DNA of 63,547 nucleotides, the filler included, from Aduncisulcus paluster (Eukaryota): assembly GCA_024181965.1 (NCBI GenBank). It is 16 parts of 16 records of this genome, joined end to end, with 100 filler letters (N's around TTAATTAATTAA, not from the genome) between each part and the next. Parts side by side here need not be neighbours in the genome. Positions count along the whole stretch, not along the records: positions 8,787 to 11,647 come from BQXS01000279.1; 15 more parts are not named here. The stretch is one strand, 5' to 3'. How positions within the stretch are numbered: position 1 is the first letter of the stretch; every line of letters begins with the position of its first letter. The position numbers were made by a program, and so were the translations under genes. The notes beneath the pieces are model-generated. The model was given only the letters and a program-made list of their open reading frames with translations. It ran no database searches and was not told the origin of the DNA. Below are positions 6,068 to 29,654 of the stretch, in pieces.

Positions 6068-7684
6068 GTCTTCTTCCTTTGTAAAATGCCCTCTGAAATG
6101 GTATTTGCCGTGAATAGTTCGCCATGTTGAATCAAATCCGGGGCTTCACAGNNNNNNNNNNNNNNNNNNNNAGTTTGATCACCTCCGTGACTCTTTCCCC
6201 TTGTCTCTTTTCTAGGAGTCCTTGCACAATCAAGATCAATTATCGGAAGAAGAATGAGATGGAGATGCGTCAAGAACCTTGCAAAGTCATGAGCTCTCCA
6301 TCCAGCAACATGCTCAAAGGTCTNNNNNNNNNNNNNNNNNNNNTCTTTCCCCTTGTCTCTTTTCTTCAGAGTGCATATGGTCCACAGGAATATCCTCAAA
6401 GAGCGAATTCTCCTACACAAATGGCTTACCTTTCTCCGTGTATAATTGTGCCTCCGTAATATATTCAATATAGTAGGGAAGTATTCACCTCTCGCTTGGC
6501 AGATGGGGCAAGTATCTCCACTGTGAGGAAAGTTGAGAATCCTCCAACGCTCGGGCGAATCGGCTGTCACCATTGAAAGGTAGCCAACAATGTTGATCTC
6601 TTCACCACCACACTTGGCGCGGATTCCACTCTGCAGTCTGACCATGTCTTCTTCCTTTGTAAAATGCCCTCTGAAATGGTATTTGCCGTGAATAGTTCGC
6701 CATGTTGAATCAAATCCGGGGCTTCACAGAGAATTTCTCTCAGAGTCTGAGTATCTGAAATGAGAAAATTCTCACCATTTGAGCGGAGAAGGCTCACACG
6801 ACCAATTTTGTCATTGTCAAATGGTTTCGGATCCCTCATCACAAGGGCCCGCAACAGTTCGGCCAACGTGGAGTTGAAGTGTGCCAGTAATAATAGAATA
6901 AATCTTCCACCTTTTTACACAAGTCTGGGGTCAGCTTTGGGGGAACCTTGGTGTGACTTCGGATATGCTCGAGATGGTGAAGAAGTCTTAAAGAACAGGT
7001 GGGATTGCCCATTACCGCACACTACCATTCCCATGAACGCTCCAGCATTTAGGGCATGGGATCTTGATTTCTATAACAATCATACTTGACCTCATATATC
7101 ATAGATATTTCAAATATAGACAAATCTTTCCTCTGTACGGCTTTTGGTTGGGATGCTATTCTGGCTTTCACGCACAGAAATCTGACCTTTGGGCTGACCG
7201 AAAAACCATCAACAAAATAAGTTATTGGGAACCAGAGAAACCTTTTTTTTGGAGTAGTTTACTCTTTGAAAGGGAGCAATTTTAGAATCGTACAATTGTG
7301 ATGTGGCTTTTCTTATCACCTTTTCGAAGTTTACACCGGTCGACAGTGCTCTAAACTACGAACAAGCTTCTTATAGGGACAATTCGATGCTTCCTCCAGA
7401 AACTTCCACTTTCTGCTCAGAGGATAATGTTTGTTAAAGAGCTCCATCTGAGCAGGGTTTAACATACATTCGATCATCTTGATGGTGTCAATGGTATCAC
7501 CCAACTCTTGATCATGTAACAAATCATTACAATGGAGTTCTCCAGGAGAGAAAAGAATAAATGACGTCCATCCTCATAAGCAGCCCTAAGAACATGCTTA
7601 TCTTTAGTCCTTTTTGTTTTTTGTGTTGAAGAAGAAGAGGACCGAGTTGGAATTGGCTGTGATCTTGATACAGGGAGGATGGGA

Positions 7685-8287
7685 TCAATGGAACGACAAG
7701 GCACAGATTCGATGCCCAGAGATGGAACTGCTAAGAGATTCAGATTCATGCTCATCATCAGCAGGGAGGGCGTAGCGACGTTTGCCTGACTGTTCATCAG
7801 CGAAGAGAAGAGCTTCACCTCTCGTGGTGCACCATGGACATGGATGATGACCACCCATTGGAGCATCCATGTTGATCCACTTCTGCTTACCATCACATAT
7901 GATATGATGTAAATAGCCATAAAGAATACAATCTACCCCATTCATCTTCAAAATGATACCTTTGTGAAGGTGATCAAGATCATCAAGAAACTCGCTTAAA
8001 ACAGCCATAGAAGGTTCTTTAGATCTCTCTTCCAGCACCGTACATTCAACCCAAGCAGCATCTTTTAATCGATAAGTACTTGCAAAGTTGCATAGGGTGA
8101 ATCTTACGCACAGGGCTGTGCCACCTCTGCCATCAATTTGAACCCCATCCATGTACAGGATAATACCGACAAAGAAAACTGGTATAATTCCTTTCGATGT
8201 GCACCAAGCAAGGTAGTCATCACAAGATATCTCGGGTTTGTCAGCTCTAACAGAAGCCCACTCCTCTCTGATAACGTCATCAAACAC
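7685..8287 (-). mobile_element. CACTA/EnSpm (CMC)-type transposase fragment, copy B
   Basis: GIILYMDGVQ, TLCNFASTYR, FLDDLDHLHKGI, HIICDG, GGHHPCPWC: first Asp, second Asp and CxxC in order, then degenerates. Confidence 0.75.
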
Positions 8288-8358
8288 CCGCTTTTCAGTG
8301 AGATTAGACCCACAGTATGTCTTTAAGGCTTGTCATCTATAAATACCACTTCATTTTC

Positions 8359-8661
8359 TCATAAAAAGCTTTTGGAATTGTATATTTGGCTATATTCTCC
8401 TCTAATTTGCGTGATTCGTACGCCATTCTGAAGACGCTCCATCTCCACTTTGATAGCTTCAAGAACTTCGGTCATAGCTTCTGGTGTATCATCAACTGTA
8501 GCCACCTCGAAGATCCACTTATTAAGTTTCCTTTCTTCGAAGGGCAAGTTGATGATACCCATCTTGACTGCTAACACACTTTTCTTCTTCTTCTTTACCA
8601 CCTTAACTCCATCAAGGTACCATTGAATACCGAGGCACCAGACCTTTTTGACCCTTTCCAT
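8359..8661 (-). mobile_element. CACTA/EnSpm (CMC)-type transposase fragment, copy A
   Basis: VWCLGIQWYLDGV..VLAVKMGIINLPFEERKL..EMERLQNG; aligns by eye with copy D (VWCCGIQYFLDGV..VLAVKCSLINI). Confidence 0.7.
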
Positions 8662-8686: not shown

Positions 8687-8786
8687 NNNNNNNNNNNNNN
8701 NNNNNNNNNNNNNNNNNNNNNNNNNNNNNNTTAATTAATTAANNNNNNNNNNNNNNNNNNNNNNNNNNNNNNNNNNNNNNNNNNNN
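8687..8786. other. Artificial 100-bp contig linker (first of 15)
   Basis: N-run + TTAATTAATTAA + N-run; repeated at 11648, 13089, 14385, 18489, 19860, 21540, 23206, 29260, 36800, 41732, 43498, 45178, 46525 and 48040. Confidence 0.98.
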
Positions 8787-8788
8787 AA

Positions 8789-10741
8789 GCTACCATCAGC
8801 GATCTTCTTGAGGAAGGTTTTATGCTTAGTGACGTTGGAAAGACAATATCTTTCGCCGTTTCAAGTTGCTTTATTGTGTCTATCGAATCCAGTTCGAAAG
8901 CTCAATGTATACTCGGCGAGAATAATCTTAAAACATCGACTGATTCAACCACAGTCGACACTTGGGAACTCTTTGATGGAGGAATTCTATCTCCAATCGT
9001 GGGGACTGATATTTCGGTTACTCTTGCAGATTCCACCCTAACCATAGAGGGTGTGTTTGAAGGATTGTGTCTCGATCACGGAGAAATATATTTGTTTATC
9101 GCAGGAACAGGTTCTCTGGCCGATTCTACTGGCTTTTCGGGCACAACGAATATTACATCTTCCTTTATGTTCCTTGTGACCGGTGAGAACTCCGCATACG
9201 TGGGATCTGGGTCACAATTCTACGGTATAAGAGTGGATGGTGTCAACGGGTCATACGCTGGCTTTAACTTTGGATATTTCGCTCAAAATTCGGCCGATAT
9301 GTTAGTTCCTTCATACTCTTCTTCTGTGACATCGAGATCTTTTTCAACGGATGACATTTCTTCGCTACAACTAACTCCAGCATATTCCTTTTCCCATCTC
9401 CCCTGTAACACGTGTGGTGGCTTTCAAGTGGAACAGTTACCGTCAATGAGAATAGATAAGGATGATTCTTTCGCCATTAGTATCCAATCTACCCCGATTA
9501 CCTCATTATTTCCCTACAATGTCGATATTTCTGCTTATATTTCAAATGGATGGGTTGTCAAGAATCTTATATCCATGGTCGAACCCTATGAAAATAGTGA
9601 CCTTCTTGAATGGTATTCTGACGAATTTTACTCTGGAACAGTCTCAAAAGTGGCAACTTCTACGACAATCGGATATGTTAGTTCTGTTAATCATTCCTAC
9701 ACGATGAACAAGTTCTCCTTGAGTGAGAATGGGTCGTATGGTCCGTCTGTTGTTCGAATCAATACAAATCCAGTATCGATTATATGTCCATTCAGTGGAA
9801 TCTTATNNNNNNNNNNNNNNNNNNNNGGAACAGTCTCAAAAGTGGCAACTTCTACGACAATCGGATATGTTAGTTCTGTTAATCATTCCTACACGATGAA
9901 CAAGTTCTCCTTGAGTGAGAATGGGTCGTATGGTCCGTCTGTTGTTCGAATCAATACAAATCCAGTATCGATTATATGTCCATTCAGTGGAATCTTATTG
10001 CCTCTCACAGTTGAATGCTCTCCTGCTACACAATTAAATATCTCACTCGCCGTGTCTTCATCCTCAACATCTGCTGTGAGTGTGCCGAGTGCTTACGAGA
10101 CTCTCCCAACTAATTATAGACCACCGAGTAAGTATGGAACTGCGATTCCGATCTGTTCTAACATTTATAATGCTGATCCTTCAGAACCGATGTACAATAA
10201 TGTCAAGCAAATATCACAGGAAACTGGTGAATACAAACAATGTCTTGACAAGGATACGAGAGATGATTGCGGATGTAAGGTTGATCACTACACAACCTCA
10301 GATCCACGTCACACCGATTGTATCGAACAAGTTGTTCGAGTGTTCTATTCGGATGGATTCACACCGAGTTTCTACGTTGAAGAAATCGGTTCGACCCAGA
10401 CCCTGTTCGAAGGTCAAGTTCTTGTCCAAGAAGTGAATGGAAGGACAGATTTCTGTGTGGATGGAGTCTGTGATCATCCATCTGATGACAGTGGCCTAAC
10501 CCTGGATCTCAGCGGTGATGGAGTGATTTCTTGGAAAGGAGCTGAGCTGTTCCATCTTCAATTCACGGCCATATTGGACTCGTATTGTGCCCTTGAATCG
10601 TACGCAATCGTGTGGGTCTATGAACCACCAGTTCAAAGTGTTACCATGTGGGTTTTCATTTCCCTTACTGTTGCTGGATTCGCTGTAGCTATGTTCTTTG
10701 GATATTTACATCATTATAACACTAATGAAAAGAGGTTCTGA
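8789..10741 (+). CDS. CATSPERB: CatSper auxiliary subunit beta-like protein, 5'-partial
   Basis: LPTNYRPPSKYGTAIPICSNIYNADPSEP..SQETGEYKQC..RDDCGC..DCIEQV..EVNGR..KGAELFHL..SYC..VYEPP then one C-terminal TM helix, matching the CATSPERB C-terminus as recalled. Frame is open to the contig edge; 9635-9806 is duplicated at 9827-9998 across a gap. Confidence 0.85.
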   Translation, partial: ATISDLLEEGFMLSDVGKTISFAVSSCFIVSIESSSKAQCILGENNLKTSTDSTTVDTWELFDGGILSPIVGTDISVTLADSTLTIEGVFEGLCLDHGEIYLFIAGTGSLADSTGFSGTTNITSSFMFLVTGENSAYVGSGSQFYGIRVDGVNGSYAGFNFGYFAQNSADMLVPSYSSSVTSRSFSTDDISSLQLTPAYSFSHLPCNTCGGFQVEQLPSMRIDKDDSFAISIQSTPITSLFPYNVDISAYISNGWVVKNLISMVEPYENSDLLEWYSDEFYSGTVSKVATSTTIGYVSSVNHSYTMNKFSLSENGSYGPSVVRINTNPVSIICPFSGILXXXXXXXGTVSKVATSTTIGYVSSVNHSYTMNKFSLSENGSYGPSVVRINTNPVSIICPFSGILLPLTVECSPATQLNISLAVSSSSTSAVSVPSAYETLPTNYRPPSKYGTAIPICSNIYNADPSEPMYNNVKQISQETGEYKQCLDKDTRDDCGCKVDHYTTSDPRHTDCIEQVVRVFYSDGFTPSFYVEEIGSTQTLFEGQVLVQEVNGRTDFCVDGVCDHPSDDSGLTLDLSGDGVISWKGAELFHLQFTAILDSYCALESYAIVWVYEPPVQSVTMWVFISLTVAGFAVAMFFGYLHHYNTNEKRF

Positions 10742-10871
10742 AAATAAATACTCTGACAGTCAGAGTCTGACTGAATTTGACAAATTGAATGTGGCAAGAC
10801 CACTTGTAGTTGTTGGTGTCACAAATTTACTACTTTTAAGGAGAAATAAAAAACACAAAAAATGAAAATTT

Positions 10872-11647
10872 CTAAAAATCTTCTCCAAGCTCATGGCTAG
10901 TTATCTGGAGCTTCTCTGTTGCATCACGGAGCTCTTTCTTTGCCGTTTGAAGCTGTTCTTCGTGTGTATGGAAAAGCTCTTGAAGAATTGCAAATTCTTT
11001 CTCCTTTTGGGCGAGTTCAGCATGTAATTCCTCGATTTGACGTGCTTGTTCGGCATGTTCTTCACCTTTCAGTTGCATGCTATCATACATCTCCTGAGTG
11101 AGGTAGATTCCATACTTGTCTTGTGCGGCTTTGACTTGCAGTTTTAAAGCTTCAATTTCCGGACATAATTCTTAATCACTAATTTTTTGGTCATCCTCTC
11201 ATTCTGCTCGGGCGTATTTTTGATAGTTTTGGCCATTTGTGCATATTGAAGGGTGCTTTTCGTTGCCTCTTTCGAACCTGCATCGAGGGATACAGTGGCA
11301 ATGAGACATGTGAATGTACGGCCTCCAAGAGATTCGCTAAGGAGTTTGGTGAGGTTTGAATCAAGGTAAGGAACGTGTGGATTTCCTTCAGCAATATTAC
11401 GGATAACACTGCCAAGGGTAAGCAAGGACAAATTAATCTTGGTGGATTCGGCCTTTCGTTGATAATTAACCTTTCCATCTTTGCCAATGCAAGCATCAGC
11501 ACCCTCAGAACCAGCCAGATCAACAAGGTGAAGCTTAGCAGTCTTCAGAAGTTCTTGCCCATCCCTAGTGGTCTCTTTGATAAGCGTAGTGATAGTAAAT
11601 ATACAATGGGAACGTGAGGAAGCACGATTAGAAAAGGTTTCTGCAAC
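10872..11647 (-). pseudogene. Kinesin-5 (BimC/Eg5)-like motor, neck and short coil; 5'-partial, one frameshift near 11161
   Basis: NRASSRSH, KLHLVDLAGSE, INLSLLTLG, HVPY, SLGGRT, KNTPEQNERMTKKLVIKNY; the neck continues in a shifted frame as EIEALKLQVKAAQDKYGIYLTQE. Confidence 0.8.
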
Positions 11648-11747
11648 NNNNNNNNNNNNNNNNNNNNNNNNNNNNNNNNNNNNNNNNNNNNTTAATTAAT
11701 TAANNNNNNNNNNNNNNNNNNNNNNNNNNNNNNNNNNNNNNNNNNNN

Positions 11748-26543: not shown

Positions 26544-28673
26544 TCACTGCAATTCATCTTGCCAATGGTCTTCTCCAAGTCTAATGTGAAGTCTCTTGAT
26601 CTCCTTGATATTCTTCATAACCTCTCTCTTGAGTTTATCATCTTCAACCAAAAGATCGGATAAGGTCTTAATAATGGCAGTGTTATGGTTTTTATAGATC
26701 GATAGCATGACACCGAATATGAGGGCGAATATTCCAATTATCAAGGGACTAAGAACAACGTTAAGAAGACCTTCAAGGGTGAGTTCAGTATCTGTGGCTT
26801 CACCGGTAATTGTTGAGCTGATAGTAAATCCAAGGTCGACTTCAGACATGAAATTCTTGAGAGTCTGCATGTATCCAACTCCATCATGTGGTCCACAATC
26901 AAGCTTCACAGCCATGCAATAAGCAATCGGGATAAGCATGATCAAGAAAATGAGACTGAAAAGACCAGAGAAGAACTTATTAAGGCTTCCAGCTCCCCAT
27001 GGTTTGTCAGCACGGCAACAAAAGAGCATAATCTGAGCCTTACTAAGATAGAATGTAACAATCGAACACAACATGTTGACAATGGCCAATCCAGGCGCAA
27101 ATATGACACCAATAGTGGTCAGAACGAAGGAGTACACGGCACTGACGAAGAAATCAGAGACTTCAAAACTTTTTTCGGGCATCCCAATCAAGTAGGTGAG
27201 AACAAATGGAACAACAATGCGCATGACAACGCTCATGATAGTATCTGTGAGCACCAACTGCCACATCTGAGATCCAACAATATTGGCAGGACATGATCTG
27301 AAAGCGAGTTTCTCTTCGTCGCTCCAACTGTCGTCACCATCGATTGTCCTCTTCAATTCCAACAAAGTAAGGAACAGATTGACGATTTGGATGGTTAACG
27401 TGAATAGAACTTCGTGGATCATCTTTGTTGACTCGTACTCAAGCATCTCAACCTTGTCAACAATCATTTTGACCAGAGGAGGAGTGATTGTATTAATGGC
27501 TTGGATGAACAGGGCCACAACAGATGCTGAAAGGGAATCTATGTTCTGAAGAGAGGTGATAGACCACACAAAGAGGACCAGAAGACACAAAATACTCAGA
27601 ACACCGAGGAAATTACGACCCATACGAACAAACCTGTACCGATCTCCACCGGTAAGTCTACCGGCACCAAGACGAAGGCCAACGGAAGTATCGTGAAGAA
27701 TAATTGAATTCTGTTTGTTTGTAGCTTCAGATCCTCGCTTGGAAGCCTGGGAATGATTCCATCCAGTAAACAGTTTCTTACTGAATGAAGCTTCGATGAG
27801 AGCCCATCTTCTGATCTCTTCACGACTAATCCCTGTCTTTATGGTCATTTTCTGCCCCTCTGCAACACTGGCTCCACCATCAAAGGCAGCTGCAGAACTG
27901 ATGGCACCAAGACACACAAAGAAGGTGATAATCAAGAAAATAAAGATTATCAGAGACATGGCGAGATCCATATGATATGTATTATCATGAATTGTATAGC
28001 TTGCATCATAAGCGGCATAAAATGAAGCCGTATCAAGAATATCATATTGAGGGGCTAAGAAATATTTTATATTACTGTTTTTAATGGCTTCAAACAATCT
28101 AGTAAAAGAATCAGTAAAAAATGTTGGACACATGATAACGGAAAAGAAGAGAATAGCGGAAAAGATGTGGATACTGACTATCGTTCTATAAAACCGGAAA
28201 ACAGCACCTTCACCTGCTCCAAATGTAGATTCAACATCTTTAATGGCCTCTCTGAAGAGGGGATTCTTATCCTTGATGTTGGAAAAGTTTTTCCAACCAC
28301 GAACAATACTAGAACCTAAATCTTTCCAAAATCCAGTGAATTTATCCCAACAAGTCTTATCCTCCTCTTCTTCTTCCTCAGAAACAGTATAACCTTCCAC
28401 AACTTGCTTAGATCTGTGCAATTTAATGAGTGTTTGCATCTGCTCTTTCCACACGAGGTTAGAACTTCGAGAAAATCTCAATTGATTCCTTACAACCCTT
28501 TTCTTTTCATTTTCAACAGCTTTTCTCCATTGGAAAAGTTCTCCGGGTGTAGGATTTTTGGATACACGGTCTTCTATCTTGTCTTTTGGTATTATGTCTG
28601 GATATGAGATAACGATGGTTTCAGTATCGATATCTCCTTGATTTCGAAGCTCGGAGGCTTGAATTATTGCCAT
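26544..28673 (-). CDS. TMC: Transmembrane channel-like (TMC) family protein
   Basis: About 709 aa from first ATG, multi-TM; IKDVESTFGAG..FRF, YHMDLA, FSKKLFTGW, CPANIVGSQMWQL..D, FEVSD, IGVIFAPGL, KPWGA, CGPHDG follow the TMC motif order. Confidence 0.85.
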   Translation of the reverse strand: MAIIQASELRNQGDIDTETIVISYPDIIPKDKIEDRVSKNPTPGELFQWRKAVENEKKRVVRNQLRFSRSSNLVWKEQMQTLIKLHRSKQVVEGYTVSEEEEEEDKTCWDKFTGFWKDLGSSIVRGWKNFSNIKDKNPLFREAIKDVESTFGAGEGAVFRFYRTIVSIHIFSAILFFSVIMCPTFFTDSFTRLFEAIKNSNIKYFLAPQYDILDTASFYAAYDASYTIHDNTYHMDLAMSLIIFIFLIITFFVCLGAISSAAAFDGGASVAEGQKMTIKTGISREEIRRWALIEASFSKKLFTGWNHSQASKRGSEATNKQNSIILHDTSVGLRLGAGRLTGGDRYRFVRMGRNFLGVLSILCLLVLFVWSITSLQNIDSLSASVVALFIQAINTITPPLVKMIVDKVEMLEYESTKMIHEVLFTLTIQIVNLFLTLLELKRTIDGDDSWSDEEKLAFRSCPANIVGSQMWQLVLTDTIMSVVMRIVVPFVLTYLIGMPEKSFEVSDFFVSAVYSFVLTTIGVIFAPGLAIVNMLCSIVTFYLSKAQIMLFCCRADKPWGAGSLNKFFSGLFSLIFLIMLIPIAYCMAVKLDCGPHDGVGYMQTLKNFMSEVDLGFTISSTITGEATDTELTLEGLLNVVLSPLIIGIFALIFGVMLSIYKNHNTAIIKTLSDLLVEDDKLKREVMKNIKEIKRLHIRLGEDHWQDELQ

Positions 28674-29654
28674 TTTACCAGTCAAAATAGGCTTTGCGGA
28701 AATGTGAGATTATTATATCACTAAATAGCAAATCAAAACAATTTATCATTCTACTTCATGACGATAGAAATAATTAATAAATTTATTTGTGGGTTTAATC
28801 TCATATTCCCGCAAGACAAAAACTTCAAGTTGTTTTAGAATTTGAGGGAAAATCTGACGCTGACGTTAACGCCAGGCGACGTTTCTCGGCGAACGACAGA
28901 TTGAAAAGGATATTGAAGGTTATGAATGTATTACATTTGACTTCCGTTTCCAACTCATAGGCCCTATGACATAGGGATTTTGTCCAACAATCTATAATAA
29001 AGACCCCGGATGAAATGATAGTTCCAAGTCTTGGAATCCAAGAAACACGTTTTCCCCTGGATATAAATATGTTTGTTTGCAGTATTGTAAAGATACACCT
29101 CAGACGATGGTACAATCTTGTCCCTCACTTTTGTTTAATTGCCCAATGATCGGAATTTCACTTCTCGACACGGATTGCTCCTCGGTATCTTCATCTTCCG
29201 TCATCTCTTCAAGCGCTGAGGGATCAATATACACACATTCAGACATTTGATGGACATCANNNNNNNNNNNNNNNNNNNNNNNNNNNNNNNNNNNNNNNNN
29301 NNNTTAATTAATTAANNNNNNNNNNNNNNNNNNNNNNNNNNNNNNNNNNNNNNNNNNNNATGTCAAACATGGTAGTGACATGAAACCATTCTTTTGAGCG
29401 TTGAACGTCACCCCTTGGCCCCGATTTGCAAAGTGATCAAAATCCAAAATCGACTTATCCTTTGCCTTCGCATTCCACATCCGAATAAATATCCACAAGA
29501 CATTTCATTTATTCCATTATTCGCGAAATGTGTTGAAATGACCATAGACACGGAATTTGATAAGCCTTGAATCGAACGATGGATGTTTTGGACACAATCA
29601 TTCGGTTCGTTAGGTATATACAAGACGCTAGCACAGTCTAACATTTCATAAAAC

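Follow-up and report, generated by a model that had tools for sequence, protein, structure and literature searches.

The window analysed in this study, a stretch of 63,547 nucleotides of Aduncisulcus paluster DNA, carries on its plus strand at 8789..10741 the 5'-truncated coding sequence, stop codon included, of a homologue of CATSPERB, as read from the open frame, from Pfam and from the GenBank protein GKT28420.1. The explanation that accounts best for the observations as a whole, and which we consider likely, is that this is the A. paluster CATSPERB orthologue and a predicted subunit of a flagellar CatSper Ca2+ channel. The gene is real but incomplete, its 5' end being cut by the scaffold edge, and 8789-10741 corresponds to the C-terminal 45%, approximately, of the orthologue. 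The identification of this locus is already known from the GenBank record, which NCBI files under A. paluster and already names as CatSper beta, and what it means biologically had been set out for Carpediemonas in 2021. The initial annotation of the same DNA had called the frame a CATSPERB homologue and had inferred that, if the host were a fornicate, a CatSper-type channel may exist in free-living metamonads; its interpretation as a whole is partly supported, and since CatSper subunits had already been published for Carpediemonas the inference of a metamonad channel is not new.

The stretch consists of short scaffolds chained by 15 artificial linkers of the form N44-TTAATTAATTAA-N44, two of which bound the gene. 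The joint on its 5' side lies at 8687..8786 (linker 8731-8742 between N runs at 8687-8730 and 8743-8786) and that on its 3' side at 11648..11747 (linker at 11692-11703), which leaves 8787-11647, or 2861 bp, as the gene's own scaffold. Because the rest of the window belongs to other scaffolds, physical linkage for the CatSper beta gene is confined to 8787-11647, and all sequence upstream of the joint at 8687..8786 comes from a different scaffold. The frame is open already at 8789, the first in-frame base past the N run that ends at 8786, and because it stays open up to the scaffold edge the start codon is not assignable. The open length of this copy is 1953 nt in a genome of 39% G+C, and the ORF counted from 8822 to 10741 on the plus strand has 639 codons, among them 7 X that fall in a gap. 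The N-terminal half of CatSper beta is absent from this scaffold. However, an X2 contig of 2617 letters (X1 and X2 being two coded runs from one sample) terminates on 8787-8954 through its last 168 letters, and thus about 2.4 kb more sequence lies upstream of the scaffold edge, which would be enough for the missing 640-800 residues or so.

Inside the coding sequence there is an exact 172-nt duplicate (9635-9806 is identical to 9827-9998 on the plus strand, as found by comparing the sequence with itself) around an N20 gap at 9807-9826. Most likely the duplicate and the gap together are an assembly artefact, and the frame is kept across it because duplicate plus gap amount to 192 nt, which is 64 codons. 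The true CatSper beta fragment would then be about 586 aa long. Among the reported contigs of runs X1 and X2 none joins across the N20 gap. An X2 bin without depth, 9843-9938, sits in the second duplicate copy and is not informative. The GenBank model GKT28420.1 (619 aa) joins 8789-9739 of the window to 9833-10738 and treats 9740-9832 as a spliced-out 'intron', and about 33 aa of the artefactual duplicate are still inside it.

By sequence and by predicted fold the window protein is to be placed in the CATSPERB family. The Pfam profile PF15149 (CATSPERB_C) is matched at an E-value of 1.7e-33 with 116.5 bits, the gathering cut-off being 27, which bears out the profile search that the initial annotation had proposed; the match runs over residues 424-625 of the ORF and positions 33-248 of the 258 in the profile, and at 10091..10696 on the plus strand it comprises the stem domain and the start of the membrane helix, for most of which the AlphaFold2 (AF2) pLDDT is above 90. 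All the motifs named in the initial annotation (LPTNYRPPS, AIP..NIYNADPS.P, S..TGEYKQC, R..CGC, DC.E.V, EVN.R and KG.ELFH) can be read in the translation, and its view that this series marks CATSPERB agrees with the 47-sequence alignment, where they are the conserved core of the family. Such agreement is far more than chance would produce. The core motifs of the cysteine-rich stem domain and its conserved cysteines are present (NYRPPS, NIYNADPS, TG.YKQC, CGC, DC, E.N.R.D.C and EL(Y/F)H), and the NYRPPS motif, the codons of which were read at 10112..10129 on the plus strand, is invariant across the family alignments. The invariant columns of the 47-sequence alignment are N96, Y97, R98, P99, P100, S101, P108, Y114, C139, C150, D164, C165, L241 and C254. 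The 14-15 columns that do not vary in the 47-, 18- and 45-sequence alignments are all retained by the window protein, each of these alignments including it as a row. When the window protein alone was used in a word-indexed search only 3 proteins were returned; exhaustive and profile searches reached more relatives, and phmmer against 1.84 billion representatives gave 192 matches with E<=1e-3, of which 30 had E<=1e-30. Over the C-terminal part the identity to any database protein did not go beyond 40%. In most full-length phmmer matches the aligned part stops within about 30 residues of the C-terminus. Against the PDB, phmmer matched 2 distinct sequences only, both of them mouse 'Cation channel sperm-associated auxiliary subunit beta' at an E-value of 4e-16.

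Upstream of the stem the similarity is weaker. At 8816..9178 on the plus strand (residues 10-130 when the count begins at 8789) there is a weak collinear similarity to the segment that directly follows the CATSPERB head domain in relatives, with a BLASTP E-value of 5e-4 against residues 590-640 of relative P0002 and a phmmer domain E-value of 1.4e-3 against residues 824-944 of relative P0011. This region holds a conserved SD.GKT motif and a W (the alignment consensus is GW..SD.GKTVV, with W59 nearly invariant), and there was no Pfam match in the first 338 aa of the window protein, this region included. When a profile of six full-length relatives was searched against shorter proteins for an A. 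paluster N-terminal piece, 45 matches were obtained, all of them with PKD-domain families and through the N-terminal PKD domain; 18 were named PKD proteins, and the name A. paluster was not among the 45, an outcome that speaks neither for nor against such a piece.

The predicted structure points to the same subunit. For the last 304 aa (window 9827-10738) the AF2 model has a pLDDT of 85.1 and a pTM of 0.77, and it ends in a single C-terminal transmembrane helix at 10637..10723 on the plus strand (residues 271-299 of 304) followed by a short tail (...HHYNTNEKRF). The terminal transmembrane helix of the initial annotation is thereby found again: the hydrophobic segment VFISLTVAGFAVAMFFGYL has a mean Kyte-Doolittle value of 2.08, and the most hydrophobic 19-mer lies at residues 276-294 of the 304-aa piece, with a tail of about 10 residues behind it. 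Comparison with mouse CatSper, also proposed in the initial annotation, placed chain E of both mouse entries first, Foldseek ranking 9ubw_E (E 6.1e-18) and 7eeb_E (E 4.4e-16) at the top with TMq of 0.62-0.64. Chains G, H and F of 7eeb were far weaker than chain E, at 7e-7 to 1.4e-4; we take chains F, G and H to be gamma, delta and epsilon. When the 619-aa GenBank model was aligned with VIA-align, 7eeb_E gave a Z of 21.2 over 390 aligned residues (1-616 of the model on 638-1086 of the chain), and the two beta chains had Z of 21.2 and 19.6 whereas the next unrelated entry had a Z of 9.2. The modelled fold is thus nearest to that of subunit beta and not to the other chains of similar build in the CatSper complex. 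Residues 65-197 and 239-303 of GKT28420.1, upstream of the stem, were poorly modelled (pLDDT below 50). The claim that the frame encodes a CATSPERB homologue is therefore upheld by the Pfam match, the PDB matches and both structural searches.

Among the large extracellular auxiliary subunits of the flagellar CatSper Ca2+ channel is CATSPERB, a type-I glycoprotein that spans the membrane once. Mouse CATSPERB (chain E of 7EEB, the 'CatSpermasome', and chain E of 9UBW, the 'mouse CatSper dimer') has in common with the A. paluster protein the CATSPERB_C domain, the motifs NYRPPS, NIYNADPS, TG.YKQC, CGC and DC, and the same stem fold, behind which a single membrane helix closes the C-terminus; in the structural alignment the two are collinear. 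It differs in that the identity within that alignment is just 22%, that the N-terminal 640 residues, approximately, of the mouse protein have no counterpart on the A. paluster scaffold, and that the part before the stem is modelled with low confidence in A. paluster. The N-terminus also differs within the family, since protist relatives, where seen, begin with a PKD domain (3 of the 4 scanned non-animal, non-fungal relatives) whereas animal proteins carry PF22831, PF21548, PF21541 and PF22830.

Carpediemonas membranifera, like A. paluster a free-living fornicate, has a protein annotated as 'Cation channel sperm-associated protein subunit beta' (KAG9397166.1) which shares the Pfam C-terminal domain and is 40% identical to the window protein over the C-terminal 243 aa. 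Unlike the A. paluster fragment, it is complete, with 1354 aa and an N-terminal PKD domain, and its partner subunits have been reported. Three Skoliomonas isolates, TZLM1-RC, TZLM3-RCL and GEM-RC1, have proteins (KAL0226649.1, KAL0212037.1 and KAL0246544.1) that are 33-35% identical with E-values of 7.8e-47 to 5.2e-43, and in the 2 that were scanned CATSPERB_C was matched at 3e-42 and 8.9e-40. Skoliomonas are free-living anaerobic metamonads of a lineage separate from that of A. paluster and related to barthelonids; two of the three proteins are full length (1312 and 1338 aa), and their records say 'hypothetical proteins' with no CatSper name. In other eukaryotic supergroups, the C-terminal domain is shared by Thecamonas trahens, Diphylleia rotans, Gefionella okellyi, Cyanophora paradoxa, Chlorokybus atmophyticus and Polyrhizophydium stewartii at 29-38% identity to the window protein, the mutual positions of these six protists and early fungi in the tree being mostly unresolved. 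In all, the family was found in Skoliomonas, malawimonad, glaucophyte, streptophyte, CRuMs, apusomonad, chytrid and animal records. For CatSper in protists the principal publication is that of Cai, Wang and Clapham (2014). Salas-Leiva et al. 2021 (PMC8516963) described CatSper alpha, beta, gamma and delta from Carpediemonas and stated that CatSper subunits are absent from metamonads except Carpediemonas; that paper has no Aduncisulcus in its genome table and does not use the name anywhere in its main text. Given the Skoliomonas members, the published absence outside Carpediemonas among metamonads is a sampling effect.

The host proposed in the initial annotation, a fornicate, is confirmed by the filing of the identical protein GKT28420.1 under A. 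paluster, which is a free-living fornicate. As for the phylogeny, in the careful tree (51 rows by 308 columns) the window sequence falls in a 7-row clade with C. membranifera and the three Skoliomonas isolates (UFBoot 95, SH-aLRT 83), and an 8-row clade of this tree received 100/97; in the quick tree (99 rows), however, it was paired with Diphylleia outside the metamonad clade (SH-aLRT 80), and the AU test did not reject this pairing (p 0.386). The phylogenetic position is not firm: the branch of the window sequence is long (1.55), the two trees conflict and the AU test is indecisive. The most likely history is that the CatSper beta gene was inherited vertically within Metamonada and lost in parasitic lineages.

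In the mouse structure the stem domain and the membrane helix are the parts that touch the pore subunit. If the A. paluster protein works likewise, its stem and helix would dock onto the voltage-sensor domain of a CatSper pore subunit, as in mouse sperm, and its missing N-terminal part, which in free-living protist homologues consists of a PKD domain, a beta-propeller and a head domain, would build an extracellular canopy. Such a complex would admit Ca2+ into the flagellum and alter its beat, and in a bacterivorous excavate it may serve steering, control of the feeding current, or a gamete stage so far unseen. The channel context in A. paluster is suggested by analogy, from the co-occurrence of the subunits in other organisms; among the 26 window translations scanned against Pfam there was no match to an ion-transport family. 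A true member of the CATSPERB family may instead work without a CatSper pore, as a surface or ectodomain protein on its own that could serve, for instance, adhesion or sensing, be it on the flagellum or in the feeding groove. The PKD domain at the N-terminus of relatives is a common extracellular interaction module, and because the BUSCO completeness of the assembly is 40.4% the presence or absence of a pore subunit is hard to settle from it. We nevertheless regard a protein without its pore as improbable: in Carpediemonas, the only metamonad genus with a published study, the beta subunit is accompanied by reported alpha, gamma and delta subunits, and it is the stem and the helix that are the most conserved parts in A. 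paluster, with pLDDT above 90 and every invariant column kept.

Slightly less probable again is a decaying or partial copy, that is, a pseudogene or a duplicated fragment. In both runs there is a second variant with a 2-nt deletion at 10571, with which the frame would end 7 codons on, before the membrane helix, and which departs from the window sequence after 10721; therefore at least one CatSper beta copy may be defective. This variant is the only form reported there in X2, but contigs lose rare variants, so nothing follows from the intact form being missing at a single place in X2. The scaffold has 23 variant places over its 2861 bp, and on a second A. paluster scaffold the middle part is found again almost identically, with 2 differences in 147 aa; the gene model there, GKT37236.1, fuses it to an unrelated coiled-coil sequence. 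Against decay, the window copy has kept its full open length at this base composition together with 14 of the 14 invariant columns of 47 members, and a DNA contig without differences spans 10692-10819, stop codon included, in the window's version.

The one physically linked neighbour is the 3' part of a kinesin gene on the minus strand at 10872..11647, which converges on the CatSper beta gene and matches Pfam Kinesin at 11144-11647 with an E-value of 4.2e-40. The two stop codons are 130 nt apart, that of kinesin being at 10872-10874. The kinesin frame breaks near 11158 into two frames, and an extra C behind 11158 is found in the one contig that each run has there. X1 and X2 contigs cover the scaffold with word depths in the thousands and the hundreds, respectively, which bears on the coverage check proposed in the initial annotation, the summed contig depths not being taken as copy number. 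The GC3 of the CatSper beta ORF is 0.37-0.38, within the 0.26-0.42 seen in 10 other window ORFs, and its RSCU correlation with these ORFs is 0.72, against 0.66-0.91 among them. An origin of the scaffold in another eukaryote of the culture or library is unlikely, and we give it hardly any weight: the scaffold is just 2861 bp with its window neighbours physically unlinked, the depositors' contamination filter dropped a sequence only when its identity to a non-metamonad database entry was above 95% and the tree placement is not firm, but the culture is described as the flagellate with food bacteria and its cells were gradient-purified, base composition and codon use are within the range of the other scaffolds, the X1 depth is in the thousands for the linked kinesin gene as for the CatSper beta gene, the best tree puts the sequence among metamonads, no database protein exceeds 40% identity over the C-terminal part, and the middle part recurs nearly unchanged on the second A. 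paluster scaffold.

To what was known, the present data add that A. paluster is a second fornicate genus with a beta subunit, that A. paluster CatSper beta shares its family and clade with the unannotated proteins of Skoliomonas, and that the CATSPERB family is found in malawimonad, glaucophyte and streptophyte-alga records. A joint reading of these occurrences, which we offer as possible though somewhat doubtful, is that the CatSper complex was ancestral to Metamonada and probably to all eukaryotes, that it was kept in at least three free-living metamonad lineages (Carpediemonas, Aduncisulcus and Skoliomonas) and lost at each turn to parasitism, and that it tunes or steers the flagella of feeding cells and is not confined to gametes. 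If this is true, CatSper would be a general flagellar Ca2+ entry system and not a speciality of sperm. The presence of CatSper beta in free-living anaerobic flagellates bears on the age of flagellar Ca2+ control and on a possible gamete stage that has so far gone unseen.

The open reading frame (ORF) of the CATSPERB homologue was found at 8822..10741 on the + strand when the window was scanned for ORFs, and its frame stays open upstream to 8789, the first in-frame base past a run of N's. The initial annotation had recognised a CatSper-beta homologue at 8789-10741 from a series of short motifs, and every motif that it quoted was present in the translation of this ORF. When the Pfam profile was applied, CATSPERB_C matched ORF residues 424-625 with an E value of 1.7e-33 and a score of 116.5 bits, where the cut-off is 27. 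In an exhaustive phmmer search of 1.84 billion representatives, the last 304 residues matched 192 proteins at E<=1e-3, of which 131 reached E<=1e-10 and 30 reached E<=1e-30, and in most full-length relatives the match stops at most about 30 residues from the C-terminus. The invariant columns in an alignment of 47 relatives were N96, Y97, R98, P99, P100, S101, P108, Y114, C139, C150, D164, C165, L241, and C254, and these are the same motif series. Among PDB sequences the sole match was the mouse 'Cation channel sperm-associated auxiliary subunit beta' with an E value of about 4e-16. The predicted structure agrees with this. AlphaFold2 modelled the last 304 residues with confidence, at a mean pLDDT of 85.1 and a pTM of 0.77 with 207 residues at 90 or higher, and the helix that ends the model at 271-299 contains the most hydrophobic 19-mer (276-294). 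In a Foldseek search with the model, two beta chains came out on top, 9ubw_E (E 6.1e-18) and 7eeb_E (E 4.4e-16), and three other chains of the complex were weaker at 7e-7 to 1.4e-4. With the GenBank model of 619 residues, VIA-align gave a Z of 21.2 to 7eeb_E and paired 390 residues between model 1-616 and chain 638-1086; the top unrelated entry had a Z of 9.2. The fragment is thus collinear with about the final 45% of mouse CATSPERB. The part before the stem was poorly modelled, with pLDDT below 50 at residues 65-197 and 239-303, and on its own it had no Pfam match. It did give faint, collinear matches to the region that follows the head domain in two relatives, by BLASTP to residues 590-640 of P0002 (E 5e-4) and by phmmer to residues 824-944 of P0011 (1.4e-3), and an SD.GKT motif and a tryptophan are conserved between this part and the relatives.

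The gene lies on a scaffold of 2861 bases (8787-11647) the edge of which truncates it, so that its 5' half is missing. The joint N44-TTAATTAATTAA-N44, a six-frame stop linker, occurs 15 times in the window, at 8731, 11692, 13133, 14429, 18533, 19904, 21584, 23250, 29304, 36844, 41776, 43542, 45222, 46569, and 48084; the window thus consists of 16 or more short scaffolds strung together, and gene order across the linkers is artificial. The sole other gene that is physically linked encodes a kinesin (Pfam Kinesin, E 4.2e-40); it is present with its 3' part at 10872-11647 on the - strand (stop at 10872-10874) and is convergent with the CATSPERB gene. The kinesin frame is broken near 11158, and in each of X1 and X2, two sequencing runs of one sample, the single contig there has an extra C behind 11158; because of this the break is probably a one-base assembly error. 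Elsewhere in the window, on other scaffolds, there are genes for topoisomerase II, a TMC-domain protein, Sua5, and an ABC ATPase, and these unlinked genes are informative on the genome and not on the CATSPERB locus. The TMC-domain ORF (Pfam PF07810, E 2.4e-12) is at 26544-28685 on the - strand; the 'tmcB family' has been singled out as the other unexpected signalling item that is found only in Carpediemonas among metamonads (PMC8516963). Three overlapping or adjacent ORFs of 100-200 aa at 7474-8661 on the - strand, on a different scaffold just upstream of the linker, had no Pfam match.

Inside the coding sequence there is an N20 gap at 9807-9826 between two identical copies of a 172-nt sequence (9635-9806 and its duplicate 9827-9998), and the reading frame is kept because duplicate and gap together make 192 nt, which is 64 codons. 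We infer that the duplicate is an assembly artefact; no contig joining across the gap was reported in X1 or X2. The GenBank model GKT28420.1 joins 8789-9739 to 9833-10738 and thereby treats the stretch 9740-9832 as an 'intron' and retains about 33 duplicated residues. A second variant of the scaffold 8787-11647, with 23 variant places, was found in both X1 and X2. It has a 2-nt deletion at 10571 which leads to a predicted stop 7 codons on, before the membrane helix, and it is unlike the window sequence past 10721; at least one copy of the CATSPERB locus may be defective. This variant may be an allele, a paralogue, or a pseudogene. The last 168 letters of an X2 contig of 2617 letters overlap 8787-8954, and about 2.4 kb of it extends upstream of the scaffold edge. 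On another A. paluster scaffold (3944 bp), the protein GKT37236.1 has 147 residues that are near-identical, with 2 differences, to those encoded by 9299-9739, and in that model they are joined to a long unrelated coiled-coil sequence. Either this model is chimeric, or the scaffold is misassembled, or a fragment of the gene was duplicated.

The initial annotation had guessed a fornicate host, and indeed the identical protein is filed under Aduncisulcus paluster, a fornicate (PMC9933649). Its GenBank name is 'Cation channel sperm-associated protein subunit beta like protein, partial [Aduncisulcus paluster]' and thus the identity of the gene was already on public record. A. paluster is a free-living microaerophilic fornicate that is cultured with food bacteria, and for the genome the cells were purified by density gradient; the assembly of 29.4 Mb has 25,863 contigs, an N50 of 4.6 kb, 39.1% G+C, and only 40.4% complete BUSCOs, and its proteins were named by InterProScan (PMC9933649). 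The G+C content of the window (34-45% in 2-kb bins) fits the genome value. That the CATSPERB scaffold is of foreign origin is very improbable. The GC3 of the gene is 0.37-0.38, within the range of 0.26-0.42 of ten other ORFs in the window, and in codon use it correlates with them at 0.72, near the bottom of the 0.66-0.91 found among these ORFs themselves. X1 and X2 contigs span the whole scaffold, with a word depth in the thousands (X1) and hundreds (X2) for the CATSPERB and kinesin genes alike, and the near-identical middle part occurs on the second A. paluster scaffold. Database proteins are all at most 40% identical to the C-terminal part and therefore it is not carry-over from a sequenced organism.

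The named relatives include animals from sea star to mammals, Thecamonas trahens, Carpediemonas membranifera, the isolates TZLM1-RC, TZLM3-RCL, and GEM-RC1, Diphylleia rotans, and the chytrid Polyrhizophydium stewartii. The proteins of the three isolates are filed under 'Eukaryota sp.'; according to PMC11603281, TZLM1-RC is Skoliomonas litria and TZLM3-RCL and GEM-RC are Skoliomonas spp., metamonads related to barthelonids. A PKD domain is present at the N-terminus in 4 of the 6 non-animal relatives scanned, namely Carpediemonas (P0013), Skoliomonas TZLM1-RC (P0006), Diphylleia (P0005), and Polyrhizophydium (P0011), and in 3 of the 4 that are neither animal nor fungal, whereas animal CATSPERB proteins have PF22831, PF21548, PF21541, and PF22830 ahead of CATSPERB_C in its place. 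For phylogeny, only those rows were kept whose match covered at least 190 query residues and began no later than query residue 100. A careful tree was made of 51 rows and 308 columns, with the rows hand-chosen as the non-animal clades plus the sea star and four vertebrates. In it, A. paluster grouped with Carpediemonas, the three Skoliomonas isolates, and two unnamed records as a clade of seven rows (UFBoot 95, SH-aLRT 83); the tree also had an 8-row clade at 100/97. This placement with metamonads is not firm because A. paluster sits on a long branch (1.55), it was paired with Diphylleia instead in a quick 99-row tree (SH-aLRT 80), and the AU test did not reject this pairing (p 0.386).

The A. 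paluster fragment combines a stem domain rich in cysteines with one membrane helix at the C-terminus, both of the CATSPERB type. In mouse CatSper the beta subunit packs with its helix and stem on the voltage-sensor domain of a single pore subunit, and the N-terminal ectodomains of the auxiliary subunits together form a canopy over the channel. By analogy with mouse, the A. paluster stem and helix would dock on such a domain, and the large ectodomain at the N-terminus would join other auxiliary subunits in the canopy. Such a complex would admit Ca2+ to the flagellum and thereby alter its beat, and its role may be either in feeding or steering cells or in an unseen gamete stage. The authors of the Carpediemonas study favour a link of CatSper to sex (PMC8516963).

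The CATSPERB feature is real and was correctly recognised. The proposal that a CatSper channel may exist in free-living metamonads was sound but is already public knowledge, and for fornicates it is in print for Carpediemonas. Salas-Leiva et al. reported CatSper alpha, beta, gamma, and delta in Carpediemonas and stated that they are absent from all other sampled metamonads (PMC8516963); the genome table covers Trichomonas, Monocercomonoides, Kipferlia, Spironucleus, Trepomonas, and Giardia, and the main text does not mention Aduncisulcus. Among the open-access full texts searched, no paper mentioned CatSper together with Aduncisulcus, and the papers examined held no further record of CatSper in metamonads beyond Carpediemonas; the extension to A. 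paluster and Skoliomonas, which was not found in print there, follows directly from public records. The present analysis contributes a clearer account of the locus and a broader picture of how the family is distributed in free-living metamonads and other protists. CATSPERB_C-family proteins are also present in records of the malawimonad Gefionella okellyi (P0050), the glaucophyte Cyanophora paradoxa (P0034), and the streptophyte alga Chlorokybus atmophyticus (P0089), and these mean that the spread of CATSPERB is wider than in an opisthokont-centred picture.
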